Shown: positions 7,201 through 34,160 of the stretch, piece after piece
Position numbering within the stretch: the stretch's first letter is position 1
Layout: each line of letters begins with the position of its first letter
DNA from: a virus
Taxonomy: Duplodnaviria > Heunggongvirae > Uroviricota > Caudoviricetes
Reading direction: 5' to 3' (one strand)
DNA: 57,277 bases
Virus record (IMG/VR): IMGVR_UViG_2721755643_000007
Notes under the pieces: generated by a model
What the model saw: only the letters and a program-made list of their open reading frames with translations
The model's database searches: none
What the model was told of the DNA's origin: nothing
Program-made: the position numbers and the translations under genes

Positions 7201-7729
7201 ACGGGCGCGGCGGCAGGTTACCCACCACCACCGAGGCCAGATACTGCGAGGTGGTTTTGCCCTTAATGGTGATGTCTTTTTCCGTCACCCAGCCACCATT
7301 ACGCTGGATCTGAACCAGCAGGCGGACTTCCGACGGATTCCGGTCCCCCTTTGAGGTGGTTTCCACCAGTGCCTGCACACCGAAGGTAAAGCGCAGACGG
7401 TCGATGTTTGCAGACGTGATGGTCCGGGTGATCGGCGTGTCGTATTTCACTTCCGTACCCAGCACCGTCTCGGAACCGGAGGATTCAAATCCCTCCGGCG
7501 GTGTCTGCTCTTGCTCACCTGCCCGGAACACCACCGTGACACCGGAGATGTTGGTATTCCCCTCACTGTCCAGCACCGGTGTACTGTTCAGCAGCACGCT
7601 TTTTAATCCATCCACCGGACCTTCAATCGGCCCTTCGCTGATGGCATCGATCACACTCAGCAGCTGCGTGGATTTCAGGTTATCCTTCGCTTCGCGCGGG
7701 GTATGCCCCTTACTGCTGCCTTTACCCAT
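4232..7729 (-). CDS. J: host specificity / central tail fiber protein J
   Basis: 1165 aa; N-terminus [37 protein letters not shown] typical of lambda J; position after I. Confidence 0.95.
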
Positions 7730-15268: not shown

Positions 15269-15622
15269 TCAGCGGCGACGGTTAACGGCAGGCGGCACGC
15301 CACGCCCAAGCCAGAGATGACAGCTTCCGCCATCATCCGGCGAAATCCGGTCCACCCAGAAGTTTTCCTCGCCGATGGTCAGTGTGTCTCCACGCCGCAG
15401 CTGCCGCACATCATCAGTCCGGACAAACAGGGACGGGCTGGAGCCTTCAACGCGCACCCCCTGTCCGGCATAGCTGATATTTTCAGGGTCATCAAAAACA
15501 CCAAGTATCACAGCACCGGACAGCTCACCGGATGTCATGGTGGCTGACGTTCCCATGTACCCGCGTATCGTTTCATCGGCGCGGGCAATGGCAGCATCGA
15601 ACAGGTTATCGGAATCAGCCAC
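15269..15622 (-). CDS. FII: head-tail joining protein FII
   Basis: 117 aa; MADSDNLFDAAIARADETIRGYMG lambda FII-like. Confidence 0.85.
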   Translation of the reverse strand: MADSDNLFDAAIARADETIRGYMGTSATMTSGELSGAVILGVFDDPENISYAGQGVRVEGSSPSLFVRTDDVRQLRRGDTLTIGEENFWVDRISPDDGGSCHLWLGRGVPPAVNRRR

Positions 15623-15633
15623 AGCGCCTCCCG

Positions 15634-16029
15634 TTATTGCATTCTGGCCAGGCCATGTTCTGTCATTTCGGCTGCCACACCGGCAGAGACACGAAACGCC
15701 GTTCCCGGCAGCACAAATGCCACAGGCTCATCCCGCGTGGCGTGAAGTGCATCAGTATGCAGCGTCACCAGTGCCACGACCGTGACCAGAGCAGCCGTAT
15801 CAATCACGGTATCCGGCTGCGCTGATACCACCTCATTTTCATGTCCGGTCAGCGCATTTTCCGGGCTGACAGATGTGTCCTGACCGGCAGCGTCATCCGT
15901 GTCATCAAGCTCCTCTTCCAGCTCTGCCACACGGAGCACCAGTTCTTCTTTCGTCCCCGTCAGGCTGACATCACGGTTCAGTTGCTCACCCAGCACCTGA
16001 AGACGGGCAATCAGTTCATCTTTCGTCAT
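15634..16029 (-). CDS. FI: DNA packaging protein FI
   Basis: Start MTKDELIARLQ; position between E and FII. Confidence 0.8.
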   Translation of the reverse strand: MTKDELIARLQVLGEQLNRDVSLTGTKEELVLRVAELEEELDDTDDAAGQDTSVSPENALTGHENEVVSAQPDTVIDTAALVTVVALVTLHTDALHATRDEPVAFVLPGTAFRVSAGVAAEMTEHGLARMQ

Positions 16030-16070
16030 GGACTCCTCCACAGAGAGAAAATGGCCCCGAAGGGCCATGA

Positions 16071-17096
16071 TTACGCCAGTTGTACGGACACGAACGCATC
16101 AGGATCAGCCAGCAGCATCAGCGGTGCTGACTGAATCATGGTGAACTCACGCGCCGGATCGCCGGTGGTCACCCAGTTTTTCGGGTAGCGGGCAGAGGCG
16201 TTAATACCTTCGCGCTGTGCGTCCGCATCCTGAATGCAGCCATAGGTGCGCAGACCGCGTGCCTGAGTGTTCCCCAGCACCATCGTGTTGTCCGGCAGGA
16301 AGTTCTTTTTGACGTCGTTTTCCACGTACTGTCCGGAATACACGACGATCGCCGTATCGCCATACATCCCCTTATAGGACACCGCTTCGCCCAGGTCTTT
16401 TACCGCTGTCTCCAGCTCGGAATGAGAGCCGCGACGGGTATCCAGCTTCTCCTTGACGGCTTTGAAGGAACGGAACAGCGCCCAGCCTTTCGGATCAAAC
16501 ACGATGATATTCACCACGCCGCTGGCGTTCAGCGCATAGGCTTCGATATCGTCGGTCGGGTCATACGTGGACTTGTCACGCTTGCTCCACTCCGTACCAC
16601 CGGACTGTGTGATGTTGTTCGCCGCACTGCGGCCCATATCCACCTCAACCGGATCGAAGGCTTCACCGGTCATGGTGTATTTGCCCTTAAGCACAGCAGA
16701 AACTGCCTGCATCTCTTCGACCTGAGCAATGGCCAGCTCTTCGTCTCGCATGTTCTGCATGATGATGCGACGGCGGCGGTAAGCCGGGTCCGCCAGATTC
16801 TGCGGATCTTCATCCGGCAGGCGACGCAGGGTCATCTGCGGATTCACCTCATGCTTGGGTTTGACATATCCCGGCGTAAATTCAGAGGTGGAGCCGCCAC
16901 GGGAACGGATAACCTCACCGGAAACAATCGGCGAAACGTACAGCGCCATGTTTACCAGTCCCGGAATTTGTGAGAGATAGACTTTCTCCGTGGTGAAGGG
17001 ATAGCTCTCACGGAAAAAGAGACGCAGAAACAGCGGATCAAACTTAAATTTCTGCTCATTTGCCGCCAGCAGCTGGGCGGTTGTGTACATCGACAT
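16071..17096 (-). CDS. E: major capsid protein E
   Basis: 341 aa from MSMYTTAQLLAANEQKFKFDP to SVQLA; near-identical to recalled lambda gpE. Confidence 0.95.
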   Translation of the reverse strand: MSMYTTAQLLAANEQKFKFDPLFLRLFFRESYPFTTEKVYLSQIPGLVNMALYVSPIVSGEVIRSRGGSTSEFTPGYVKPKHEVNPQMTLRRLPDEDPQNLADPAYRRRRIIMQNMRDEELAIAQVEEMQAVSAVLKGKYTMTGEAFDPVEVDMGRSAANNITQSGGTEWSKRDKSTYDPTDDIEAYALNASGVVNIIVFDPKGWALFRSFKAVKEKLDTRRGSHSELETAVKDLGEAVSYKGMYGDTAIVVYSGQYVENDVKKNFLPDNTMVLGNTQARGLRTYGCIQDADAQREGINASARYPKNWVTTGDPAREFTMIQSAPLMLLADPDAFVSVQLA

Positions 17097-18813: not shown

Positions 18814-19567
18814 TCTTCTCCTCCTCTGTTGATTGTCGCAGTCCGGATTCAAATGCCGCAGCCGCCCAGGCGGGCGGTTTAAGACCGGCTGCACGGCGCT
18901 CCATCGTTTCACGGACCTGCTGGGCAAAAATTTCCTGATAGTCGTCACCGCGTTTCGCGCACTCTTTCTCGTAGGTGCTCAGTCCGGCTTCTATCAGCAT
19001 CACCGCTTCCTGAACTTCTTTCAGACCATCGATGGCCATACGACCGGAGCCTATCCAGTCGCAGTTCCCCCAGGCACTGCGGGCTTCCTGAAAGCTGAAG
19101 CGCGCTTTTGAAGGTAACGTCACCACGCGGCGAACGATGGCCTCTTCAAGCCAGCACAGAAACATCTGGCTCGCCTGACGGGATGCGACGAATTTTCGCC
19201 GCCCCATAAAGTACGCCCACGACTCGTTCGCACTGGCCCGTGCCGTGGAGTAGCTCATCTGGGCGTAATTCCGGGAAAGCTGCTCATACGAGACACCCAG
19301 CCCGGCAGCGATATACCGCAACAGTGACTGCTCAAACACGGAGTAGCCGTTATCCGTATCCTGAGCCGTCTGCAGGTTCAGTGAGTCCCCCGGCATCAGG
19401 TGCGGCACTTTTGCGCCTCCCAGACGGACCGGTGCTGCGGCGTAATACGCGGCAATTTCACCAATCCAGCCCGTCAGCCTTTCCCGCTGCTCCTGACTGT
19501 TCGCGCCCAGAATAAAATCCATCGCTGACTGCGTATCCAGCTCACTTTCAATGGTGGCGGCATACAT
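18794..19567 (-). pseudogene. B: portal protein B, C-terminal fragment (gene split by the island insertion)
   Basis: 257 aa MYAATIESELDTQSAMDFILGANSQEQ...EEEKSDSRAA matches the C-terminal part of lambda gpB; begins exactly at the insertion junction. Confidence 0.9.
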
Positions 19568-19645
19568 CGCCTTTATGAAAAGACAGGAAAAAATAAAATT
19601 TAAAAACAGTACATTACGAATGCTCAGACCTATCGTTTAAAGGAG

Positions 19646-19670
19646 TCGCAATACACACTGCAATACACGA
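19646..19670. repeat. direct repeats GCAATACAC(A) near the island left end, candidate integrase arm-type sites
   Basis: CGCAATACACA and CTGCAATACACGA in tandem; same motif occurs three times at the right end. Confidence 0.5.
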
Positions 19671-19702
19671 TTATTTATAAGATGAGCGGCATCCGTCATA
19701 AA

Positions 19703-19941
19703 GCTGGTGGATGCTTTTTCTATGCATATATGCACAGTTTTAGTGGGCGTTAATGTCGATATAGGGATCCCCATATCGAGATTGGATACCTGGCTTTTTT
19801 CCGGTTAACCTTTAATCAGGCTGGTGGGCTTTACCTGTTTTGTATGAGTGGTCATCATGACCATGTCATAACAAAAACCCCATATTCGTGGTTTTTCTGT
19901 GTCGGGCTATTCTGTCGTTGCTGTGCTGATTTGGCTGGTGG
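19703..19941 (+). other. cluster of three Chi sites (5'-GCTGGTGG-3') within 240 bp, same orientation
   Basis: Exact octamers at 19703-19710, 19820-19827 and 19934-19941 on the plus strand in non-coding DNA, interleaved with palindromes (TGCATATATGCA, TCGATATAGGGATCCCCATATCGA, TGGTCATCATGACCA). Confidence 0.7.
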
Positions 19942-20009
19942 GCTGAATCATCATTACGGCGATGCAGCTATGTAGACGTTCCGGCCTCCTCAAATTGAGG
20001 ATTGTGGAA

Positions 20010-20400
20010 GAATCAATGGGTTAGTCTTACTTTCCCGACATCCCCCAATGGGGGTTTTCGAAACAATCAATAGCTTAGGCTTACTTCCCCGATTTCCTGC
20101 ATTGCAGGTTTTCGAAATAATCAATGGGTTAGGCCATCGTGCAATTTTGCACTTTGCCAGCCAGCGCAATGTCGCGTTATCAGTCCTCAGATGTGAGGGA
20201 TGTAGCCAGCTTTTCCCCCAGTGGGGGATATCCAGCACCGACGGCTTAACTGTGCGTGCCAGCACAAGGTAGCCTTGAACTACTTACTGCATCCCATCTT
20301 ACAGGCCGTGCCTTCCTGCTTAACTTTTTGCAATGCAACAAGTCAGCCAGCGCAATTTTGCGTTATCGGGAATATCAGCAAGTTACCGCCGCAATCGTTC
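20010..20400. repeat. array of imperfect direct repeats each carrying a short GC-stem hairpin
   Basis: Recurring ATCAATGGGTTAG / ATCAATAGCTTAG and GTTTTCGAAA flanks around hairpins CCCCCAATGGGGG, CTGCATTGCAG, GTGCAATTTTGCAC, CCCCCAGTGGGGG; GCCAGCGCAAT(N)TTGCGTTATC present twice. Confidence 0.55.
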
Positions 20401-20664
20401 CGGCTTCTTCCACTGGTAAGTATTTTTCGCGCTCTCCCTCCGTTGTTGAGAACGGCGACGATATGCCAGCAACTCAAGGACTCTTGTTCGTATGTTGCGC
20501 ATATCCACGCCGTTAAGCTCAATACCGTCACGGCGCATCACCTCAGCCACTACACGCACATAATTATCTGCGGTCACGCTGTCCGGCTGCGTGGCCTGTT
20601 CGTCATGCTGCTTGCTGATTCCACAAGCACGGCGGATTAATCGCAGTATTTCGGATTCAGTCAT
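20383..20664 (-). CDS. hypothetical protein (93 aa) immediately downstream of the island small terminase
   Basis: ORF MTESEILRLIRRACGISKQHDEQ...; basic C-terminus; no family recognised. Confidence 0.5.
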   Translation of the reverse strand: MTESEILRLIRRACGISKQHDEQATQPDSVTADNYVRVVAEVMRRDGIELNGVDMRNIRTRVLELLAYRRRSQQRRESAKNTYQWKKPERLRR

Positions 20665-20675
20665 AGCGTACTACG

Positions 20676-21230
20676 TTACTTATCTTTATTCGGCTGCAAC
20701 TTATCCGGTACGTTTCCGGCAGTTTCCATCAGATAATCGGACAGCATCAGCGGTATGTTTTCGTCAAGTTTTGCGCATGCGTTACAGGCTCTGATAACTT
20801 CTTTTTTCAGTCCATCCAGCATAGACGGCTTCATGTCGGGAAACTTCCTTGTCATGGCAAGCGGCAGGCTGTCCATGATTGAAGAAATCTGACTCGCCAA
20901 TTTTGAAAGCACGTATATACAAAACGCTGTATCAATAACGTCGCCGCGTTCGCGCTCGTTTTTAAGCTCCTGCGCCTCTGCCTGTGCTGTCAGCAATCTG
21001 ATCCTGACTCGTAGGAGTTCATCATCATCAATCTCGCCTTTGTCGTCTGTAATCTGGTTAATTGCATTGCTAACCCGATTGTCTATTACGCTGGCAACAT
21101 CATAAAACGCCTCGCGGCCTTTACGTTCAACGGGAGTCACTCCCCACTTGTCGAACGCTGTCGCACTTACACGGCAGCTTTGCGCCATGTTTTTTTTGTT
21201 CATCAGGTGCGATTTCATCAATATCCCCAC
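20676..21230 (-). CDS. terminase small subunit paralog (lambda Nu1-like) encoded by the island
   Basis: C-terminal two thirds align to helper Nu1 (RLLTAQAEAQELKNERERGDVIDTAFCIYVLSKLASQISSIMDSLPL versus [47 protein letters not shown]); adjacent to the island cos; true start may be the internal MNKK. Confidence 0.8.
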   Translation of the reverse strand: MGILMKSHLMNKKNMAQSCRVSATAFDKWGVTPVERKGREAFYDVASVIDNRVSNAINQITDDKGEIDDDELLRVRIRLLTAQAEAQELKNERERGDVIDTAFCIYVLSKLASQISSIMDSLPLAMTRKFPDMKPSMLDGLKKEVIRACNACAKLDENIPLMLSDYLMETAGNVPDKLQPNKDK

Positions 21231-21329
21231 TTAAGTAATGTTTCAGGTTGGTGTATTGGCTTTATCTTTTCCTTTTTATTCATAGAGATAGAGCGAACAA
21301 CAAAACCACCACCAGCACCCGAAAAAGGC

Positions 21330-21394
21330 TCATAAATAGCGAAAACCCGCGAGGTCGCCGCCCCGTAGCCTACCGGATCGCCGGAAAGGACCCG
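21330..21394. other. island cos site: cosN and cosQ-side sequence shared with helper cos, cosB side divergent
   Basis: 65 bp block nearly identical to 34091-34154 (3 mismatches); contains AGGTCGCCGCCC at 21352-21363, the reverse complement of the lambda cohesive end GGGCGGCGACCT; flanks diverge toward the TerS gene. Confidence 0.8.
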
Positions 21395-21419
21395 CCAGCC
21401 AGAACGGGCCCTAATTTCA

Positions 21420-21803
21420 TCAACCAATCAACTTATAGCGACCATCCCGTGCATTGCGACGTACACGCTCAATCTTGAGGCATAGCGCCGCATCTGGCTT
21501 TTTTGGGACAGGTACGCGGCAATATTCAGAAGATCGAGGAATATTGTTTATCCAGTCGATCACTTCACTTAAATACCAGGCCTTACGCCCTTCCGTAACC
21601 TGTACGCGTTCGGGGAACTCTCCGCGAGCCTCAAGGTTTAGCAATGTGCGACGGCTAAGGGTAGTAAGTTCCATCACCTGATTCATATCAACAAGGCGTT
21701 CACTTAAACGCATTTTGTCAGCAATAGCCTTTAATTCCTCTACTGCTGGATCCGGATACATCATTTCGGCAATTGGCTTAAGGTCATTGTAATGATTCTG
21801 CAT
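21420..21803 (-). CDS. AlpA-family HTH DNA-binding protein (second copy in the island)
   Basis: 127 aa with MELTTLSRRTLLNLEARGEFPERVQVTEGRKAWYLSEVIDWINN resembling AlpA-type motifs. Confidence 0.6.
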   Translation of the reverse strand: MQNHYNDLKPIAEMMYPDPAVEELKAIADKMRLSERLVDMNQVMELTTLSRRTLLNLEARGEFPERVQVTEGRKAWYLSEVIDWINNIPRSSEYCRVPVPKKPDAALCLKIERVRRNARDGRYKLIG

Positions 21804-21814
21804 TGTATCCCCCT

Positions 21815-22156
21815 TTACACACGAGCCAGCGGCTGAACAGAAATACCTGAGCCAACAAACGCGGCAACCTTTGCCGACAGTTCTTTTACAGACTCAGGCC
21901 AGTTCAGAGCATCAACATTTAAAACACCTGTCTTATAAACCTGTGCCTGTGTTTTTTTCACTGTGTCGATTTGTACAGCGGAAACATAAACCGCTTTACC
22001 TACGCTCGAACCATCCCATACCACCAGTGCACCTGTTGCATCTTCCTGCATCAGTGGCGTAAATGCAGGAATTACCCCTTTATTAGCTGAAAATATCCCC
22101 AGCGTAGTCACCAGTGCTTCAGTGCCAGCCATGAGTTCAGTGTAATGAGTAGCCAT
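21815..22156 (-). CDS. capsid decoration protein paralog (gpD-like) encoded by the island
   Basis: 113 aa; shares spaced motifs with helper D (TPLM.D, LV.WDG, YK.G, WPE, AF.G..IS) at low identity. Confidence 0.7.
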   Translation of the reverse strand: MATHYTELMAGTEALVTTLGIFSANKGVIPAFTPLMQEDATGALVVWDGSSVGKAVYVSAVQIDTVKKTQAQVYKTGVLNVDALNWPESVKELSAKVAAFVGSGISVQPLARV

Positions 22157-22165
22157 TGCTCCCCC

Positions 22166-23212
22166 TTAGCCAATGCGAACGGTAACAAAACGATTGATGC
22201 GGGCCGGTATTGGCTGTGGTGCTGAATGTGTCTGCACATATTCAATAGCCGGATCACCAGGCACAATATAGTTTTTCGGTGCAAGTTCGGCTTTAGTCAG
22301 CCCCATTCGGATTAGCTCCGGATCCTGAATACCGCCATAGGCGACAATCCCCTGAAGAGCCGTATTGCCAAGCACCATCAAATCAGGATCAAGGAAATGT
22401 TTTTCTGTTCCGTCCTCGTCGGTATAACGCCCGCTGTAAACAACAATCGCAACATCGCCCATATACCCTTTAAAACTCACCGAATCACCAAGGTCTTTAA
22501 GGGCCGTTTCCAGTTCGGAATTAGAACCACGACGGGTATCCAAAGCCTCTTTTATCGCTCTGAATGAACGGTATTTCTTCCATACATTACCACCCATAAT
22601 GATGATATTAGTGACGCCCTCACTAAATTCTGCGTAGCTCTCAATATCATCATTTGGATCAAAAGTTTCTTTATCCTTACCTGACCACTCAGTACCGCCA
22701 GACTGAGTGATGATATTTTGTGGTTTTATATTCCAGTCCAGCTCATAACGTTCAATACCATCGCCCTCAATGATATTTTTCCCCGTTGTGATTGCCTGAA
22801 CAGCAAGCCATTCAATACGTGCACGAATAGCTTTAGCCTGATTTACAATCGCCTGTTTAACTTTAATATTACGCGCCCCAAAAGCATTGTATTGCTCAGG
22901 TGACACACCAGCAGGGCGCACAGCTAACTTATTTGGATCAATGCTGCTTTTCGGCTTCATATAACCTGGACGAATTGTTTTTGATTCGTATCCCTCATCT
23001 CGTGAAACTTTACTGCCCACCATAGGAGAGCAAAACGCCGCGATCGGGATATTTGGATCGTCGATCGTATCAAGAATAATGTCTCTCGATTCAAACATTA
23101 CCGAGCGAGTGAAAAACAAACTGGTAAACAACGCATTTAATTTTTTTTGCACATCTTCAGCATTAGCCACCTGCACAAGCTGTGTAGGCGAATATAAATC
23201 AACCATACTCAT
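22166..23212 (-). CDS. major capsid protein paralog (gpE-like) encoded by the island
   Basis: Start MSMVDLYS; shares ITQSGGTEWS, DTRRGS.SELETA.KDLG and AIVVYSG with helper gpE; rough by-eye identity 35-40%. Confidence 0.85.
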   Translation of the reverse strand: MSMVDLYSPTQLVQVANAEDVQKKLNALFTSLFFTRSVMFESRDIILDTIDDPNIPIAAFCSPMVGSKVSRDEGYESKTIRPGYMKPKSSIDPNKLAVRPAGVSPEQYNAFGARNIKVKQAIVNQAKAIRARIEWLAVQAITTGKNIIEGDGIERYELDWNIKPQNIITQSGGTEWSGKDKETFDPNDDIESYAEFSEGVTNIIIMGGNVWKKYRSFRAIKEALDTRRGSNSELETALKDLGDSVSFKGYMGDVAIVVYSGRYTDEDGTEKHFLDPDLMVLGNTALQGIVAYGGIQDPELIRMGLTKAELAPKNYIVPGDPAIEYVQTHSAPQPIPARINRFVTVRIG

Positions 23213-23423
23213 CCTCTTTACATTCATTACAAATAATTGTGAATATATTCTATTACCGATGTCTGCTATGCGAATACATGCAACCAAGTGCAATGTTGTA
23301 TAAAATATGCCGTAACAACTTCAGTGCTGATAATTCGTGTTAATGTATTTACTTCCTTTGGTCGGGATTTATGTAGCATGCCGGAAAATCTATTTTTTTC
23401 CGGCATCTTTTTGTTTGCAGAAT

Positions 23424-23846
23424 TTAAAACGGTATATTATCGCCGTACGGATCATCATTCCCCGACTGTTGTTTTGCCCTGTTCAGTGCGTCAGTGGCCT
23501 GCCCCTGCTGGCCTTTTTTGCCGCCCGGTCGCGCCGTTCGCGCACTGATTACGCTGTCTGCGATAACCTGCCAGCCCCGCCGCGTTTCGCCGTTCTGGCC
23601 TGTCCACTGGCTTACCTGCATGTTACCCGCCACGCTCACCAGTTCGCCTTTGTGGTGTTTTGCCAGTGCGTCGGCCTGTCTGCCAAACGCCAGGACGGAT
23701 AACCACATCGTCGCCGTTCCGTCATCTGCCTGGCTGCACGGCAGGGGAACCGCCATACTCGCCATCGCCATTTGTGTCCCTTTGCTGGTGGTCTTTAACT
23801 GCGGGTCAGCCACCAGCCGCCCGTAAGCCGCTATCTGTGCTGTCAT
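23424..23846 (-). CDS. single-stranded DNA-binding protein (SSB-like)
   Basis: 140 aa; OB-fold-like N-terminus, Gly/Gln-rich linker, acidic tail ending DDPYGDNIPF. Confidence 0.75.
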   Translation of the reverse strand: MTAQIAAYGRLVADPQLKTTSKGTQMAMASMAVPLPCSQADDGTATMWLSVLAFGRQADALAKHHKGELVSVAGNMQVSQWTGQNGETRRGWQVIADSVISARTARPGGKKGQQGQATDALNRAKQQSGNDDPYGDNIPF

Positions 23847-24157
23847 GCTGTCTGCTCTCCGGTTTTAACATTGATGGTTGTCACCTGTTCCGCTTCGGCA
23901 ATCTCCCGTTCTGTCAGCGTGGCAAAGTTTGCCGCTGCTGTGGTCATGAATGCGCTTATCAGGTCGGGATGTTCCTTCGCGTATCCTGCCCGTGTGTGGT
24001 GGTCTATCGCTTTGATTGCCACCTTTAAGGAAAGCTCTGTCATGTCTAACGCTTTATATTTTGCCTGTGTTCTGTCTCTGCGAATTTTGGTCATTTGTCG
24101 CCCCTGATTCATGTTTTCGGCTGGCATGTTTGTTAAGTGATTTTTATGTATGCGCAT
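23843..24157 (-). CDS. hypothetical protein (104 aa)
   Basis: ORF with stop/start overlap to SSB, downstream of the ori iterons. Confidence 0.45.
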   Translation of the reverse strand: MRIHKNHLTNMPAENMNQGRQMTKIRRDRTQAKYKALDMTELSLKVAIKAIDHHTRAGYAKEHPDLISAFMTTAAANFATLTEREIAEAEQVTTINVKTGEQTA

Positions 24158-24169
24158 TTATTTTCACCC

Positions 24170-24440
24170 CCCCTCGTTTAAAAAGTTTTTAGTTGTGCCT
24201 CCCCCCCTCTACCCATCTACCCGAATGCTCACCATGTCAGTAATGGCGCGGCTTTCAGCGGGTAGATAGCTTTTTGACTCCTCTACCTGCCGTCTACCCT
24301 GCTACCTGAAACTGATAAAATCAGGTAGAAGAGGTAGAGAGCTTTTATTAGCCTTCTACCTAGCCCTATACCCACTTATCATGTTGAATAATATGCGTTT
24401 ATTTTGTTCAGGTAGATGGGGTAGATGGCTTTTACAAAAA
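24170..24440. repeat. iteron array (GGTAGA / TCTACC motifs), candidate island replication origin
   Basis: Many copies in both orientations (CTCTACCCATCTACCC, GGGTAGATAG, CAGGTAGAAGAGGTAGAGAG, CAGGTAGATGGGGTAGATGG) immediately 3' of the primase-helicase gene. Confidence 0.65.
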
Positions 24441-24441
24441 A

Positions 24442-26196
24442 TTATAAAAACGCGTCGCAATCGTCTGTTGTAATTGCGTTGGTCTGCGTTACTCCCTTAA
24501 CTTTTCGCGTAATATATTCATGCCCGTAAACTTTCGCCGCTGGCTTCATGGCCTTGCTGAACTCAGCCACGTTTAGCGGTTTGCTCCTGCCCGCGTATGC
24601 CATAAACGCCAGATAGACGCGGTAAAGGCTGTTCCTGGTCGTGTACTTCACTGAATCACCACCGCCACCCATCATCAGGCCGCGCGCTTCCTCCAGAAAA
24701 TTCAGGAACTGGCAAAACTCAATAACCGGATCCGTCTGTTGCTTTATTGCCAGTGCTTCATCACCGTCACGCTGTTCCAGTAGTAAAGCCCGTGCCTTCT
24801 CAGGGTCGGTAAAGTTCGCCAGCAATCGGCGGATAATAACGGGGATTTCAGCCGCAATCTTTTCCGGTAGCTCCCTGTCTTTTTCGGCCTCACTGACGAT
24901 ATTGTCGAAACGGAAAATCACGCGACGACGTGCCACACCTCCGGCCCGTTCGGTGAATATCATCGGGTTGTTGTTGGTCGCCAGCACCACCGCCCTGATT
25001 ACCGCCGTGAAACGCTTTTCATATTTCGGGTTAATTTCCACGGGGTCGCCGCCTGTGATTTTCTTGATGCCCGTTCCTTCGCCTGTATATTTCGGCTGGT
25101 CAGCCAGGACGATAAGACGACTCCCGACAACCTGCGCACGTCCACCAGCATCATCAAGCGATGTCATTTCAGCGCTTACCGTGTTCTGTTTCCCTGCCAG
25201 AAGGCTGGCTATGTGTGTGAATGTACTTTTACCGCTCCCGCCGTCTCCGGTGGCCTCAATAAACATCTGCCAGTCGTACCGATTCGCCATAATCATGTAC
25301 AGCGCGGCACATATACGCATCATCTTGCGCGGGTCTTTTCCGGCTGCGTGCTCAAGCCATTTATGAAAGTTTGGCGCGTTATCGCGGATGTTCTCCCCTG
25401 GTGCTGGTGGCGTGTACTCAATGCCGTTGTGCGTGGTGATCCAGTTCTCCGGCGTGTGCGGGGAAAATTCCCCCGTTTTCAGGTCAAGCGCACCATTGGC
25501 GAACGGCAGCAAATCGCCAGACGGCTCGCCCATTGGTTCGGCAATAACTTTTAACGCTTCCACGGCGTTATTGATTACGCGCTTGCTGAAAGTGGCCCTG
25601 TGCTCTGAATAGATCGCCACCATTTCGCGGCTAAGTTCCATTGTGCTGACCGGACACCATACCCCGCCGCGCCATACGTGAACGATTTCACTTTCAGGAT
25701 GTACGCAAACGCCATCAAAGCGATCGGCAAGCAACTGCGCGCGCTCACTGTCCGCCATCTGCGAAAGTTGCGCCTTTTGCTTTACCGGAAGCTCAATGAC
25801 CAGACCATCAGAAAGATTCTGGCGTTCACGGGCCAGATATTCGCGCCAGTTCTGCACCTCCTGGCCGTGCATACCCTCAGGATAAAAATTTGCATCCTGT
25901 ACGCCTGCTGCCGCCAGCTTCTGACCAATCGCCTTTATCATTACAGGCGCAAGATATCCGGCCCTGTATATGCGTGCTGATTTTCGGCCTTCCGGCACAA
26001 TTTGCAGATTATCCAGTTCGGATAGCTGCTGCTCCCCAAGCCACACAGGAGGCTCATTATCTCCGGCCATACGCGCATCATGTTCCTGCCATTGTTTCGC
26101 GTGTGCCCAGGCATCACTACCCGCAAAAATAATGACTTCTGTTCCTTTGTGTTTTATGCCGCGTGACTGCTGTTTTACGTTCGGTGCCAGTTTCAT
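24442..26196 (-). CDS. primase-helicase (D5 / P4 alpha-like NTPase with Walker A)
   Basis: 584 aa; Walker A GDGGSGKST; size and domain order typical of satellite and plasmid primase-helicases. Confidence 0.8.
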   Translation of the reverse strand: MKLAPNVKQQSRGIKHKGTEVIIFAGSDAWAHAKQWQEHDARMAGDNEPPVWLGEQQLSELDNLQIVPEGRKSARIYRAGYLAPVMIKAIGQKLAAAGVQDANFYPEGMHGQEVQNWREYLARERQNLSDGLVIELPVKQKAQLSQMADSERAQLLADRFDGVCVHPESEIVHVWRGGVWCPVSTMELSREMVAIYSEHRATFSKRVINNAVEALKVIAEPMGEPSGDLLPFANGALDLKTGEFSPHTPENWITTHNGIEYTPPAPGENIRDNAPNFHKWLEHAAGKDPRKMMRICAALYMIMANRYDWQMFIEATGDGGSGKSTFTHIASLLAGKQNTVSAEMTSLDDAGGRAQVVGSRLIVLADQPKYTGEGTGIKKITGGDPVEINPKYEKRFTAVIRAVVLATNNNPMIFTERAGGVARRRVIFRFDNIVSEAEKDRELPEKIAAEIPVIIRRLLANFTDPEKARALLLEQRDGDEALAIKQQTDPVIEFCQFLNFLEEARGLMMGGGGDSVKYTTRNSLYRVYLAFMAYAGRSKPLNVAEFSKAMKPAAKVYGHEYITRKVKGVTQTNAITTDDCDAFL

Positions 26197-26492
26197 TTTT
26201 TACCTCTGAATCCGTTAATCATGGTTTTCATTTTCTGGATATTTCCCCACGCTTTTTCCCTGCTGATGGGCTTACTGCGGGGTGCGGCATATACCAGGGA
26301 AAAATCACGCCGGAACTGATAAACAGGCATCACGCAGTCATAGCTATACCCCTCACGGCGGTAAGTGATGCGCCGTTCTGCCACGCCTTTAATCGTTACC
26401 GTGCCGCCGTATTTATCGCGGTAAATATCGCCGTTCATAAATTCAGGTCGAGCGGGGCCGCTGGCAATAAAGCCAGAATTTTTCATTTCCAT
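26193..26492 (-). CDS. hypothetical protein (99 aa)
   Basis: ORF overlapping the primase start by 4 nt (operon-like). Confidence 0.45.
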   Translation of the reverse strand: MEMKNSGFIASGPARPEFMNGDIYRDKYGGTVTIKGVAERRITYRREGYSYDCVMPVYQFRRDFSLVYAAPRSKPISREKAWGNIQKMKTMINGFRGKK

Positions 26493-26509
26493 ATTATTTA
26501 TTCCTCGAC

Positions 26510-26731
26510 TTAACTCGACTTATTTGATAGCAGGGCACTATTTATTGCGTCATTGAGTTTTTCTGCTGATTCATCAATAAGTGACAACAGGCCATAAGCA
26601 ATATTTGCATCTTCATTGTCATTTATGCAATCAAGCCACATATTTAATATTGCTTTTGCTGAATTATTTAAAGTTAATGAACTTTCTGCACATGCTAACA
26701 ATTTAAAAAAGACTTCCCGTTCTGTATTCAT
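26510..26731 (-). CDS. hypothetical protein (73 aa)
   Basis: Small ORF in a tightly packed co-oriented cluster. Confidence 0.4.
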   Translation of the reverse strand: MNTEREVFFKLLACAESSLTLNNSAKAILNMWLDCINDNEDANIAYGLLSLIDESAEKLNDAINSALLSNKSS

Positions 26732-26923
26732 TTAATCCCCCACCAGCTTACTTTCTTCCTCAATCAAAAAACTAGCGACACTTCCCGAAAGACGCGCCAG
26801 TAGGCTCGCCAGTGCGGATATATCAGCATCTGTAATTTTGTTCGGGTATACCTCAAGAAGGCGGCAAATAATTTCTGTCTGGTGCGCACGTTCAGCGGCT
26901 TCGTGTAATGTAATTTCCTGCAT
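26732..26923 (-). CDS. hypothetical protein (63 aa)
   Basis: Small ORF, abutting its neighbours. Confidence 0.4.
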   Translation of the reverse strand: MQEITLHEAAERAHQTEIICRLLEVYPNKITDADISALASLLARLSGSVASFLIEEESKLVGD

Positions 26924-27108
26924 TAATGCACCTCTTTTAATTCATACACTGCTGAAATAATGACTTGTGATAAGCCATATTCTGATGATTCGCTTCTCAC
27001 CGCAGCAATAGCCGTCTGAACATTAACAGCCTTCACATTCTGAGCGATACCAATTGTGTGGCCTATTGGGTTAACAGCTCGGGCAAATACACGGAAGGTT
27101 TTAAGCAT
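26923..27108 (-). CDS. hypothetical protein (61 aa)
   Basis: First gene of the leftward small-ORF operon, facing the divergent control region. Confidence 0.4.
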   Translation of the reverse strand: MLKTFRVFARAVNPIGHTIGIAQNVKAVNVQTAIAAVRSESSEYGLSQVIISAVYELKEVH

Positions 27109-27389
27109 GACTCACTCCCTGGCGGATTTTTGCAGCGAATACAGCAACACAACCGGACGGGCAACGGCTACGCGCTTCGCGTTCCGTCCAGGCGGTTACG
27201 TGGATGATTTGAGATTCTCCGGCACTCAGTGCCAGAAAACGCCACACAAAGGCCGTTTGTGTGTGTACAAGGTGTGGTATATGATTTACAGCAACCATAA
27301 CGGCTCCTAGTTTACGTTGTTGGTTAGACGCCCCGTATGTGTTCCCAGCACTGCGGGGCGTTGCTCTTTGTATTTCAACAATCCTTTCG

Positions 27390-27468
27390 GTGTGTTTCAT
27401 GTTATGAGCGCATGAAACACACGTCAAGGCTTTTTGTATTTCTTTTTTTGTGTATACTGAAACACACC
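27390..27468. promoter_or_regulatory. candidate operator/promoter: 12-bp perfect inverted repeat plus an extra half-site overlapping a -10-like TATACT
   Basis: GTGTGTTTCATG-(9 nt)-CATGAAACACAC at 27390-27422; half-site TGAAACACACC at 27458-27468; TATACT at 27453-27458; AGGAG before the ATG at 27489. Confidence 0.5.
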
Positions 27469-27488
27469 GATGATTAGGAGTTTCAGAA

Positions 27489-27794
27489 ATGGCAACGGCT
27501 AACAAAAACGCAAAATCACAACTGACAACTGTCAGAGTCCCACTAGATGTTATGCAAGGGATGGAATCCGTTAAGCTGGACGGTGAAAGCAATGCCGGAT
27601 TTATCGTAACCGCCATGCGCGGAGAAATAGCCCGCCGCCAAGCAGAAGGCAGCGGAGAAAATCCCCTTGTGTCGTCACTGGATGCCCTGGCTAAGGTCGA
27701 ACAAATCGGCATCAAAGCAGCCGAGGAGATCGGGCAACTCGTCACCGTCGCGCGTGAAGAACTCCAGCGACGCAAGGTCAAAGAGCATGAATAG
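27489..27794 (+). CDS. putative ribbon-helix-helix DNA-binding regulator (candidate island repressor)
   Basis: 101 aa; N-terminal TTVRVPLDVMQGMESV fits the RHH beta-strand/helix pattern; transcribed opposite to the replication operon. Confidence 0.5.
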   Translation: MATANKNAKSQLTTVRVPLDVMQGMESVKLDGESNAGFIVTAMRGEIARRQAEGSGENPLVSSLDALAKVEQIGIKAAEEIGQLVTVAREELQRRKVKEHE

Positions 27795-27851
27795 CCAATA
27801 TCAGCGCCATAGTTTGAGGAACGCAGGCGCATTGCTTTACAGGACAGCACC

Positions 27852-28031
27852 ATGAGCGACACAGAATCAACCAAAACACCATCACCAACTCGTAAGAGAC
27901 GACGCAAAAATATAGCGCATGAACATGAATCAGAAAGATTCGCACCTTGTTCGTTTGCTCTTGAGAAATTCCTTAAAGAGCACAGGAAAAAGCTCTCGTT
28001 GCAAACCTTGGAACGAACCAAATCTGACTGA
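27852..28031 (+). CDS. small hypothetical protein (59 aa)
   Basis: ORF MSDTESTKTPSPTRKRRRKNIAHEHE... co-oriented with the RHH gene; below the ORF-track length cutoff. Confidence 0.3.
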   Translation: MSDTESTKTPSPTRKRRRKNIAHEHESERFAPCSFALEKFLKEHRKKLSLQTLERTKSD

Positions 28032-28127
28032 TCACATTGCCCACCAGCCGCAAATGTGGCATTGTTGGTGATGCTTTTGTTTTCCCTTGTTTCCACTGGC
28101 GACCCTTTTGCGGTCGCCTTTGTTTTG

Positions 28128-28706
28128 TCACTGAATGCGGTTACCAAAGTAAAACTCAGGCTGATATTCACGTATCAGCGTTTTTTCTTCTTCCTCCAGC
28201 TCACGCTTTTTGCGCTTACATGCCTGTAGCTCCCTCCCCTTCTCGCTGGCACTTATTTGATATTGCTCTTTACGGCGGGAAAAATCCTGTAATGCACCCC
28301 ACGGGATACCATAAGTCCCCGTTTTTCTGATACCTGGTATCACATTTCTGAATACCCAGTTACTGAAACGATGAGCAAATGTGCCAGGCGTCGTTGCTTT
28401 GCGGCTGCGGGCTATTAGTTTGTAGAAACCTGACTCAGAGATAATTCTCATATTCTGATTTCCTCCTGGGGTGTAAGTTAAATTTACTCCCTTTTCATCA
28501 TCATCAAGCATCTGCAACGCCGTACGCGAATTGGTTAGTTCCAGCGCAGCACAAACATCTTTTGCAACAAACCACGGATCGCCGTTCAGATACACCACAC
28601 GAACGTTCACACTATCAAAGCGCAGAACGACGAGATCACGAATATCGCAGAATTTTTTCACTGGACGAGCGTACCCCTTGCCCGTCACGGCAATATTTTT
28701 ATTCAT
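28128..28706 (-). CDS. Bro-N domain protein (antirepressor-like)
   Basis: 192 aa; N-terminal FDSVNVRVVYLNGDPWFVAKDVCAALEL typical of Bro-N. Confidence 0.75.
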   Translation of the reverse strand: MNKNIAVTGKGYARPVKKFCDIRDLVVLRFDSVNVRVVYLNGDPWFVAKDVCAALELTNSRTALQMLDDDEKGVNLTYTPGGNQNMRIISESGFYKLIARSRKATTPGTFAHRFSNWVFRNVIPGIRKTGTYGIPWGALQDFSRRKEQYQISASEKGRELQACKRKKRELEEEEKTLIREYQPEFYFGNRIQ

Positions 28707-28762
28707 CGCGTTTTTACCTTATAGACAAAAAACCCCTCGTGATGAGGGGCATTATTTACTGG

Positions 28763-29020
28763 TTATTGCTGTTTTGTTTTTCCAGGTTTCCATCCAGGAT
28801 GCCACTCACCACGGATCCATGCCTGAACCTCTGAAAGTCGATACCCTGCAGCACGTTCACCGATCTTGATACGTCGCGGGAATTTACCTGCCTGCTCCAT
28901 TTTCCAGCGTGTTGAGTTTGCCAGCGTGGTAAGTGCTATGCACTCTTTTTCACGAATGAACCGATCAATGTCCTTCATTGTGCGCAAATCGTTTTCATCA
29001 ACAAGAGAATAAATTGTCAT
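28763..29020 (-). CDS. AlpA-family transcriptional regulator / excisionase-like protein
   Basis: 85 aa; CIALTTLANSTRWKMEQAGKFPRRIKIGERAAGYRLSEVQAWI matches the AlpA pattern; immediately downstream of int. Confidence 0.8.
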   Translation of the reverse strand: MTIYSLVDENDLRTMKDIDRFIREKECIALTTLANSTRWKMEQAGKFPRRIKIGERAAGYRLSEVQAWIRGEWHPGWKPGKTKQQ

Positions 29021-29021
29021 A

Positions 29022-30263
29022 TCACACCACCTCTTTATTAAGCTCGATAACGTTGTTGTTAAATCCTGCTATCGTATTAAGGTAATTAACCCACATATTA
29101 AGCACCTCAAGTTTTTTCTTTATATGCCTGCTTTTATTGTAAACACCAGCAACCCCTTTCACTTTATGACCTAAAAGAAGTTCGACAATATAAGGATCCG
29201 CCCCCATATCATTAAGCGTAGTGGAAAATGTGCGCCTGAAATCATGTATGCACCACAAGCCATTAGTATCATGACCAAGACGCCTGCATATTCTGTTTGC
29301 AGCCCCTGTTATTGTCGCCCTTTGCAAAGCACAACCGACAACATAACCGCGATTTTTTGTTTCTGCGTAAAGATTAACGATCCATTGTTTTATTCCGTCA
29401 GGAACAGGCCTTACTATAGCCTCCTTGTTTTTGCTGTGCTCTTTTGGGACTGTCCATACCCAGTTTTTTAAATCCCATTCGTCCCAGGTGGATAGCCTCG
29501 CCTCCTGCTGTCGGCAACCAAACACCAGGCAGATAACCATTATTCTTCGGTTATATATTGATGACAGAGTTAGCAAATTATTACCGTAAGCATAAGACCA
29601 TACATCAGCGGTTTCATTGATATTAAGAACGCGATCCCTTATACCGGATGAGCGCCCGACATAACTTACGTTAATATCTCCAAAGGGATCGCACGCGATG
29701 TATTGCCTGACGCGACAAAAACGCAACGCCTGTTTGATATCAAGAAAAATTGCACCAGACATAACAGGCGCATTTTTTTTGATCCTGTCAAAGACGGTAA
29801 GCCATGTGTGTAATTTGCACTGTTCTATAGCCATATCACCGATATAGGGGAAGATATGCTTTTCAAATCGTTTTATTAAATATTCATGCTCTTTTCTGGC
29901 TGTTGTGGCGTGATTGTCGTACCAGTAAAACAGCGCATCCCTTACGGTCACTGGTTGCATAGTTTTTTCGGCAGCAAGTTTTATTTGCCTGCGGGGGTCC
30001 AGATTTTCAGCCAGCCATTCACGGCACTGATCACGCATGCGCCTGGCCGTTGCAAGAGACATGTCAGGATAGCGACCAAGTGTAAGCCATACCGGAGGGG
30101 ATTCCCTGCCACCAAGACGATAGTAAAAAACAAAGCTGATCCCCCCAACCATGCTTACACGCACAGACAACCCGCGCCCATCCGCTATTGTTTTTTGTTT
30201 GTCCTGCCGTTTTCCGACAAGACTCTTTAACAGTTTGTCACTGAGTTTGTTTTCAATAGCCAT
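29022..30263 (-). CDS. tyrosine integrase (P4-type, with N-terminal arm-binding domain)
   Basis: 413 aa; N-terminal DGRGLSVRV / YRLGG / LGRYPDMSLATAR motifs; C-terminal HDFRRTF ... LLGH ... VYNKS. Confidence 0.9.
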   Translation of the reverse strand: MAIENKLSDKLLKSLVGKRQDKQKTIADGRGLSVRVSMVGGISFVFYYRLGGRESPPVWLTLGRYPDMSLATARRMRDQCREWLAENLDPRRQIKLAAEKTMQPVTVRDALFYWYDNHATTARKEHEYLIKRFEKHIFPYIGDMAIEQCKLHTWLTVFDRIKKNAPVMSGAIFLDIKQALRFCRVRQYIACDPFGDINVSYVGRSSGIRDRVLNINETADVWSYAYGNNLLTLSSIYNRRIMVICLVFGCRQQEARLSTWDEWDLKNWVWTVPKEHSKNKEAIVRPVPDGIKQWIVNLYAETKNRGYVVGCALQRATITGAANRICRRLGHDTNGLWCIHDFRRTFSTTLNDMGADPYIVELLLGHKVKGVAGVYNKSRHIKKKLEVLNMWVNYLNTIAGFNNNVIELNKEVV

Positions 30264-30281
30264 TAAAAGCCCTCAAGAGAT

Positions 30282-30335
30282 TTGCAATACACACCCATCC
30301 CGATCGCCAATTTGCAATACACATTGCAATACACA
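30282..30335. repeat. three direct copies of TTGCAATACACA between int and the right junction, candidate arm-type sites
   Basis: Copies at 30282-30293, 30312-30323 and 30324-30335; same motif as at 19646-19670. Confidence 0.5.
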
Positions 30336-30411
30336 AAACCGCGAAAAACTGGAAGGGTGATGAACGGTCATCAAAAGCATGGAAAACGACATTCCAGACG
30401 CAGCAAGGGTT

Positions 30412-33392
<2,981 letters not shown>

Positions 33393-33938: not shown

Positions 33939-34160
33939 TGTTCATTCCACGGACAAAAACAGAGAAAGGAAACGACAGAGGCCAAAAAGCTCGCTTTCAG
34001 CACCTGTCGCTTCCTTTCTTTTCAGAGGGTATTTTAAATAAAAACATTAAGTTATGACGAAGAAGAACGGAAACGCCTTAAACCGGAAAATTTTCATAAA
34101 TAGCGAAAACCCGCGAGGTCGCCGCCCCGTAACCTGTCGGATCGCCGGAAAGGACCCGCA
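33939..34160. other. helper prophage cos site (cosB-cosN-cosQ)
   Basis: AGGTCGCCGCCC at 34116-34127 is the reverse complement of the lambda cohesive end; flanking sequence matches the recalled lambda left end toward Nu1. Confidence 0.85.

Follow-up and report, generated by a model that had tools for sequence, protein, structure and literature searches.

A tandem array of putative Roi/IHF binding sites at the integrase-distal end of an Escherichia coli phage satellite

We analysed a 57,277-nt stretch of viral DNA (IMG/VR record IMGVR_UViG_2721755643_000007, Caudoviricetes; called the window below), in which an array of palindromes occupies the non-coding, integrase-distal (left) end of a phage satellite, a helper-embedded phage-inducible chromosomal island (HE-PICI). 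In this satellite the array contains three modules in tandem, related to three allele classes (A, B and C) of roi, a gene of lambdoid phages, and each module combines a dyad with a site for the integration host factor (IHF). We give a probability of about 0.6 to the reading in which the array is bound by Roi and IHF and works as DNA. Since the units copy sites present in different roi alleles, the satellite probably binds the Roi regulators of its helper phages rather than making a structured RNA. The original prediction, which had noticed hairpin-bearing imperfect repeats at this place, left three candidates, i.e. a structured non-coding RNA (ncRNA) or small RNA (sRNA) cluster, a type III toxin-antitoxin-like RNA repeat, or multiple protein-binding sites; the last of these is now favoured and the two RNA candidates found no support.

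Short GC-armed palindromes are denser in the region 19975-20400 than anywhere else in the window, with 11 hits, 8 of them distinct, for about 1.1 expected from the mean density of the window (arms of 5 bp with at least 3 G/C, loops of 1-4 nt); the count in this region is the maximum per 426 bp, the 95th percentile being 4. All the hairpin sequences listed earlier are present, and the palindromes lie at 19988-20000 (CCTCAAATTGAGG), 20042-20054 (CCCCCAATGGGGG), 20096-20108 (CCTGCATTGCAGG), 20139-20152 (GTGCAATTTTGCAC), 20185-20198 (CCTCAGATGTGAGG), 20215-20227 (CCCCCAGTGGGGG), 20265-20277 (CAAGGTAGCCTTG) and 20351-20362 (CGCAATTTTGCG). A repeat search resolved three head-to-tail units of 54 bp with pairwise identities of 65-72%, and Tandem Repeats Finder reported for the array a period of 54, 2.3 copies, 80% matches and a score of 164. 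In each unit, a perfect palindrome of 13 bp is separated by a 10-nt spacer from a perfect IHF consensus, WATCAANNNNTTR. On the plus strand, unit 1 (class A, 19981-20034) carries the palindrome CCTCAAATTGAGG, the spacer ATTGTGGAAG and the IHF site AATCAATGGGTTA at 20011-20023; unit 2 (class B, 20035-20088) carries CCCCCAATGGGGG, TTTTCGAAAC and the IHF site AATCAATAGCTTA at 20065-20077; and unit 3 (class C, 20089-20142) carries CCTGCATTGCAGG, TTTTCGAAAT and again AATCAATGGGTTA, at 20119-20131. The recurring flanks described earlier are therefore real and correspond to this tandem repeat, the flank ATCAATGGGTTAG being a perfect IHF consensus with copies at 20011, 20065 and 20119. Three of the five perfect IHF matches of the whole window are in the array, for 2.4 expected over 57 kb. 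The spacing from unit to unit is about five helical turns, and 54 bp is approximately what a dimer site and an IHF site would be expected to take up together. The repeat-bearing region had been placed at 20010-20400; it exists there, but the array starts about 30 bp earlier, at 19981, and its unit 1 had been missed. Its non-coding character agrees with the RefSeq records of identical E. coli genomes, in which no gene is annotated between 19568 and 20382.

When compared with phage genomes by BLAST, the units matched only the interior of roi. This gene, located in the nin region of the lambdoid phages, carries the annotation 'anti-repressor' or 'KilAC'. Searches of the phages with 20089-20400 and with 19570-19985 also returned only roi. 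Unit 1 is 96% identical over 50 nt to the roi/'anti-repressor' gene of phi330 and matches KilAC genes in E. coli prophages as well; its sequence is that of roi allele class A2. Unit 2 is 90.6% identical over 53 nt to the roi of VT2-Sakai, HK629 and many Stx phages, while unit 3 is 87.8% identical over 40 nt to the roi of CP-1639 and 90% to KilAC/Rha genes, with a palindrome that is the one of a class C roi (locus L060) and nearly the one of HK022 roi (CCTGCATTGCAGC). All of these matches fall on one segment of roi, codons ~41-58, in the sense strand. In E. coli genomes, the non-coding copies of the units are found in satellites and the coding copies in genes annotated as 'phage antirepressor KilAC' or 'Rha family'. 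Of 5426 complete E. coli genomes, 831 have matches to the array when satellite arrays and roi genes are both counted, and roi is present in 985 of the 5426. A plus-strand open reading frame at 20048-20272 (74 aa) was considered as a small protein and rejected, its translation of units 2-3 as Roi-like peptide repeats (tblastn) being regarded as a by-product of homology; it starts at an ATG inside the class B palindrome, is not annotated in RefSeq, and that ATG is missing from the arrays made only of class A (L010, L155).

The roi genes themselves were compared in 80 loci from viral contigs and in HK022. Roi is composed of a Phage_pRha-like N-terminus (PF09669), which scores just under the Pfam cut-off, and of a KilAC domain (PF03374). 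The proteins are near-identical except for residues ~18-63, which comprise the presumed recognition helix and the unit-like segment. From these sequences, the roi alleles form specificity cassettes in which the helix type co-varies with the palindrome type. In class B the helix ...HDKVKQSIERL is paired with the palindrome CCCCCAATGGTGG; in class A, ...HDNVKRTIE(T/M)L is paired with CCTCAA(A/T)TTGAGG, with two different spacers; and in class C, ...PDNVKISIERL (L060) and ...HSNVKVSIDRL (HK022) are paired with CCTGCATTGCAG, the spacers differing between these two alleles. Every palindrome-bearing roi allele presents a perfect WATCAANNNNTTR exactly 10 nt downstream of its palindrome. In HK022 roi the order is CCTGCATTGCAGC, 10 nt and AATCAATGATTTA, the sole perfect IHF consensus in the 8.7 kb examined. 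That three different near-perfect palindromes occupy the same codons and yet encode different amino acids (PPMV, PQIE and PALQ) indicates the DNA dyad as the selected feature. We take the 13-bp dyad to be the operator of phage Roi, a Rha-type winged-helix protein with a KilAC domain. The Roi protein of HK022 is reported to bind a site in its own gene, the binding being stabilised by a closely linked IHF site (Clerget and Boccard, 1996).

The conservation of the array was followed in 33 satellite loci, i.e. the window together with seven loci of E. coli and 25 viral contigs. In these loci the array is always at the integrase-distal end, on otherwise different phage-inducible chromosomal islands (PICIs). 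It takes 17 architectures of 1 to 4 units (A-B-C, A-B, A-C, A, A-B-A, A...B-C with an insert, and others), and usually holds one unit per class. The carriers include HE-PICIs in portal or capsid genes and PICIs located beside clpS, phoQ, dinD or ykgR; some have large terminase and capsid genes, and some have PerC or captured P22 ejection-protein genes. The array is thus not confined to HE-PICIs. In locus L004 (NZ_CP147611), a close relative of the window satellite lies in the major capsid gene, not the portal gene, of a lambdoid prophage, and its array combines a class B unit with a weakened unit of class A and, upstream, an extra unit that is degenerate. The PICI L158 has, at 5595-7693, a late zone with homologues of the P22 ejection protein gp7 and of an injectosome translocase, which are captured helper late genes. 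Two scans of genome contigs gave no sign of the array beyond E. coli-type genomes: with the protein of terS, the satellite small terminase gene, 0 of 79 pattern matches were confirmed as relatives, and an 18-mer scan (17 specified bases) found only chance matches in unrelated phyla.

A perfect IHF consensus, 10 nt away from the dyad, is conserved in 21 of the 28 distinct satellite units. All satellite copies of the class B dyad but one (sB7, CCCCCAATGGGTG) are perfect (CCCCCAATGGGGG), whereas every phage copy is imperfect (CCCCCAATGGTGG, GGTGG), a Val codon imposing this form. In 98% of cells the two arms of the dyad are complementary, compared with at most 53% for slid controls; changes in the arms affect both sides at 3 of 6 positions and one side only at 0, with no G-U intermediates. 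Judged from these sequences, the satellite units behave like selected binding sites, with signs of selection in the perfected symmetry and the retained IHF sites. These same features bear on the suggestion that the units are neutral scars of exchanges between satellites and the nin region, or homology patches that promote such exchanges with the aid of the neighbouring Chi cluster. It is known that PICIs capture helper genes (PMC10111431), three Chi sites stand beside the array, and a prophage roi/Rha pseudogene (L261 4880-5062, NZ_CM160080) ends right downstream of its dyad-IHF module, which hints at breakpoints; the module may be a recombination breakpoint. Nevertheless, neutral scars or homology patches would not lead one to expect three different alleles trimmed, in register, to the same 54-bp segment of a 720-bp gene, nor a class B palindrome brought to perfection and an IHF consensus kept across lineages, nor a position conserved in hundreds of genomes and on unrelated PICI backbones. 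In addition, from the known polarity of Chi, the orientation of the sites is such that RecBCD would cross the array before meeting Chi. We therefore regard this explanation as improbable.

The possibility that the hairpins are RNA stem-loops, either of a structured ncRNA or sRNA cluster or of a type III toxin-antitoxin-like repeat RNA, was confronted with the folding data. The array folds with an energy significantly below that of shuffled sequences, with z = -3.6 on the plus strand and -4.5 on the minus strand, and its stems show compensatory changes. The folding is however equally strong on both strands, as is expected of DNA palindromes, which give this result whether or not they are transcribed, and the compensatory changes track the phage allele classes without any G-U intermediate. 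The covariance search that had been proposed was negative, Rfam 15 having no match anywhere in the window at gathering thresholds, nor any in 19500-20700 at E<=1. No sigma-70-like promoter was predicted within or beside the array, and no unit hairpin qualified as an intrinsic terminator (stem of at least 5 bp, GC-rich, loop of 3-8 nt, T-run), the plus-strand tails being only TTTT. The stems have just 5 bp and the loops 3 nt, and the same sequences are found inside a protein-coding gene in phages. A ToxI-like type III toxin-antitoxin RNA, for which near-identical tandem repeats would be expected just ahead of an endoribonuclease toxin gene and co-transcribed with it, was rejected, the units being only 65-72% identical and the sole adjacent gene, orf93, being convergent on the array and without any match to a Pfam or nuclease family. 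Taken together, RNA stem-loops are a very unlikely explanation of the array.

A transcript could also act by pairing, if read-through of the minus-strand terS-orf93 operon produced an antisense RNA that silences or destabilises the roi mRNAs of the three allele classes. In the window, as in more than 20 loci of HE-PICI type, the strand of the array that is roi-sense is indeed antisense to the genes of the satellite; a complementarity of 40-53 nt at 88-96% would be ample for pairing, and there is no strong terminator after orf93 on the minus strand. Such an RNA would need a fixed orientation, while the array is found in both, as is expected of DNA sites; among the tests that set RNA against DNA, this one tells the most. 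In the PerC-type PICI L158, the array shares its strand with the primase gene, the captured late genes and perC, and gene order points to the same arrangement in L008 and L009; there the array follows a terminator-like hairpin past perC, and a transcript would be roi-sense. Moreover, pairing needs neither the change of the class B dyad from the phage sequence to perfect symmetry nor the retention of the IHF consensus, and, as given above, no promoter or Rfam family was found. An antisense role thus seems quite unlikely.

Under the DNA-level binding that we favour, the Roi of a helper of matching class and the IHF of the host would together bind each module. This proposal, which is drawn from the sequence comparisons above, can be stated as a series of steps. 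When a roi-carrying lambdoid phage enters lytic growth, Roi would be made from the early nin region, and a Roi of class A, B or C would then assemble with IHF on its cognate module at the integrase-distal end of the satellite. In the outcome that we prefer, Roi would be titrated off the autoregulatory site of the helper, upstream of Q, and the dose of the decoy would rise with satellite replication. Alternatively, the binding of Roi could be the cue by which the satellite perceives an active helper, in analogy with P2 Cox on P4. Both outcomes are speculative, titration being the most likely of the two. The presence of one unit per class suggests that a broad range of helpers has been selected, and not a high dose. 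More tentatively, the array could be an 'operator library' of Roi/IHF site mimics that lets Gram-negative PICIs detect or sequester the Roi of whatever type of helper is active, a possibility that we regard as somewhat doubtful. In line with a role of IHF, lytic growth is harmed or blocked by Rha-family proteins when the host lacks IHF, and rha is itself regulated by IHF (PMC4936722).

Several observations weigh against binding of helper Roi by the array. No roi/ant gene was found in the resident lambdoid prophage, so the array cannot serve that partnership, and the partner would have to be another lambdoid phage. No promoter or gene under the control of the complex was found, which makes its downstream consequence a guess. 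A fourth type of roi helix (class D, L088) has no palindrome or module, and the palindromes in 20139-20382, which have no phage counterpart, are outside the Roi account. The co-variation of helix and palindrome could in part be linkage, the two lying within 60 bp of each other. Finally, the reported binding of Roi inside roi, next to an IHF site, is the key experimental link, and its footprint may not be this exact palindrome.

The array could instead be an architectural or packaging element of the satellite itself, in which phased IHF bends, with or without a binder encoded by the satellite, assist in the recognition of cos, in excision or integration, or in the insulation of the late operon from transcription coming from outside, with no part for Roi. 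Lambda cosB and attP both use IHF. The three perfect IHF sites at 54-bp phasing and the location of the array between the terminase operon and att would fit such a role. On the other hand, cosN is at a distance of 1.2 kb and, like that of lambda, immediately precedes the small terminase gene; the att arm motifs are within about 135 bp of the core, while the array starts about 410 bp away from it; no Rha-type protein was found to be encoded in the satellite; and the copying of three roi allele classes is left without explanation. A purely architectural element is on balance unlikely.

Compared with the phage Roi site, as in HK022, the array has the same palindromes and the same 10-nt gap to the IHF site, with 88-96% identity over 40-53 nt. 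It differs from phage roi, where the site is single, coding and linked to its own Roi allele, in having three allelic sites in tandem in non-coding DNA, with no Roi encoded, and in its perfected class B dyad. With the P2 Cox boxes of P4 it shares the concept of satellite cis sites for a helper-encoded regulator, without sequence relationship; the P4 sites are at a defined promoter, P_LL, whereas the array has no evident promoter. We know of no P4 counterpart of the multi-allelic tandem design with an obligatory IHF partner. Like E. coli datA (for DnaA) and the incompatibility loci of plasmid iterons, it clusters regulator sites together with IHF, and the sequestration of a DNA-binding protein is a plausible action; the regulators are however unrelated, each site of the array differs in specificity, which is breadth and not dose, and titration is here a hypothesis. 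ToxI RNAs and CRISPR arrays also have short tandem units with small inverted repeats, but the units of the array diverge, no co-oriented toxin or cas genes adjoin it and no RNA family matches it. A CRISPR array was rejected, in agreement with the original prediction, the units having no alternation of repeat and spacer and being homologous to one another over their whole 54 bp.

Our literature search found no description of multi-allelic tandem Roi/IHF site mimics and nothing relevant linking Roi, IHF and satellites. In the main text of the HE-PICI study the words roi, Rha and hairpin do not appear, and IHF is mentioned once, for att sites (PMC10111431). The helper activator of Gram-negative PICIs has been reported as unidentified (Fillol-Salom et al., PMC6092414). 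The carrier is of a known kind and satellite sites for a helper regulator have the precedent of P4 and Cox; the new part is the multi-allelic tandem array. This array, widespread and present on many backbones, would tie satellites to a specific helper regulator, Roi, and to host IHF. If it binds Roi, a parasite would have copied an operator of its host virus in several allelic versions, widening its helper range, and a functional handle on the Rha/Roi family in phage development would be gained. If it moreover works as an operator library, it would be a DNA-mimicry route for sensing or interfering with helpers, and could account for the way in which the PICIs of E. coli perceive them. For annotators, a caution follows, as palindrome-rich 'hairpin arrays' in mobile elements can be mimics of protein sites and not RNAs.

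The array is followed by a conserved block at 20139-20181 (GGCCATC-GTGCAATTTTGCAC-TTTGC-CAGCCAGCGCAATGTCGCGTTATC), which has two further A/T-centred palindromes. This trailing block (GGCCATCGTGCAAWTTTGCAC...CAGCCAACGCAATTTTGCGTTATC) comes directly after the array in 33/33 satellite loci examined, and no counterpart was found in the phage collection at E<=1. Next, at 20182-20343, is an optional insert of 162 bp, flanked by the copies of a 24-bp direct repeat, D3 (CAGCCAGCGCAAT[G/T]T[C/T]GCGTTATC; 20158-20181 and 20344-20367, at a spacing of 186 bp). The insert carries CCTCAGATGTGAGG and CCCCCAGTGGGGG, the latter being a fourth, B-like palindrome without IHF site; it is present in L004 and L007 and absent from L006 and L010. 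The segment 20344-20382 contains a second copy of CAGCCAGCGCAATTTTGCGTTATC and the junction to the stop codon of orf93. The A/T-centred palindromes belong to a second covarying family at PICI ends (GTGCAATTTTGCAC, GCGCAATTTTGCGC, GCTCAATTTTGAGC and CTACGAAAATTTCGTAG; window 20139-20181 and 20344-20367; L006, L007, L009 and L135), for which no phage counterpart was found and which may be operators for further regulators. A 15-mer scan of the viral contigs for the GTGCAAWTTTGCAC palindrome gave mostly scattered matches, taken as chance.

The island that carries the array measures 10.9 kb (19566-30471) and splits the portal gene of a lambda-like prophage, itself integrated at ybhC. It is bounded by an 8-bp core identity block, ATCGCCTT, at 19566-19573 and 30464-30471, and doubled TGTATTGC arm motifs are present at 19648-19667 and 30314-30333. 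The satellite attL (19566-19669) thus comprises the core ATCGCCTT and the motif TGTATTGC twice, at 19648-19667 on the minus strand. HE-PICIs are defined as islands that interrupt a late gene of a lambdoid prophage and have the orientation of that gene, and their att sites have the doubled TGTATTGC motif ~81 and ~132 bp from the att centre (PMC10111431). As portal fragments flank the island, which is co-oriented with the prophage and has the doubled TGTATTGC motif at the published distances, it is an HE-PICI of Tommasini, Mageeney and Williams (2023, PMC10111431). Its genes are all on the minus strand and encode an integrase, an AlpA-like protein, a Bro-N protein, a primase/helicase, SSB, the major capsid and decoration proteins, a second AlpA-like protein, the small terminase and Orf93; the order of zones, i.e. 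int/AlpA, Bro-N, primase/SSB and late zone, is shared with HE-PICIs. Short tandem repeats (CCCATCTA, TAGCCCTATACC and GGTAGATGG) occupy 24204-24428, in the intergenic region between the primase gene, downstream of it, and the SSB gene. These repeats fit the earlier placement of the origin iterons, and a replication origin at the array was rejected, as had been stated.

The array was said to adjoin the island terminase, and it is indeed next to the small terminase operon (orf93 and terS, minus strand). The gene orf93 (20383-20664, minus strand), a conserved hypothetical located downstream of terS, is kept beside the array in most HE-PICI-type loci. The terS product (20676-21218, minus strand) matches Pfam Phage_Nu1 over residues 66-148 (model positions 80-162); its likeness to lambda Nu1 is C-terminal only, the N-terminal part, presumed to bind DNA, having no family match. 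Upstream of terS, an exact lambda cosN, GGGCGGCGACCT, is present on the minus strand at 21352-21363, some 1.2 kb away from the array, and the prophage has its own cosN at 34116-34127. A cos site in the array region was rejected, none being found in 19500-20400. Because TerS is Nu1-like only C-terminally and an exact lambda cosN lies ~130 bp upstream, these sequences suggest that the large terminase of the helper is diverted by the satellite to the satellite's own cosB. An IS621 element (IS110 family; window ~15366-16346, L001 7767-8747) splits the major capsid gene of the prophage that hosts the satellite, which leaves the embedding helper defective in this strain.

Three plus-strand Chi sites (GCTGGTGG, at 19703, 19820 and 19934) form a cluster at 19703-19941, between the array and the att arm, and are set in repeated modules (…AATCAGGCTGGTGGGCTTTAC…). 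The window contains 10 Chi sites, all within the satellite (19703-28048), for 1.9 expected in the whole window, and another of them, at 21309-21316 on the minus strand, adjoins cosN. This richness in Chi possibly shields the satellite DNA from RecBCD. A near-perfect palindrome of 32 bp (AATGTCGATATAGGGA/TCCCCATATCGAGATT, 19752-19783), located between the arm of att and the Chi cluster, is also present in other PICI ends (L005 and L006).

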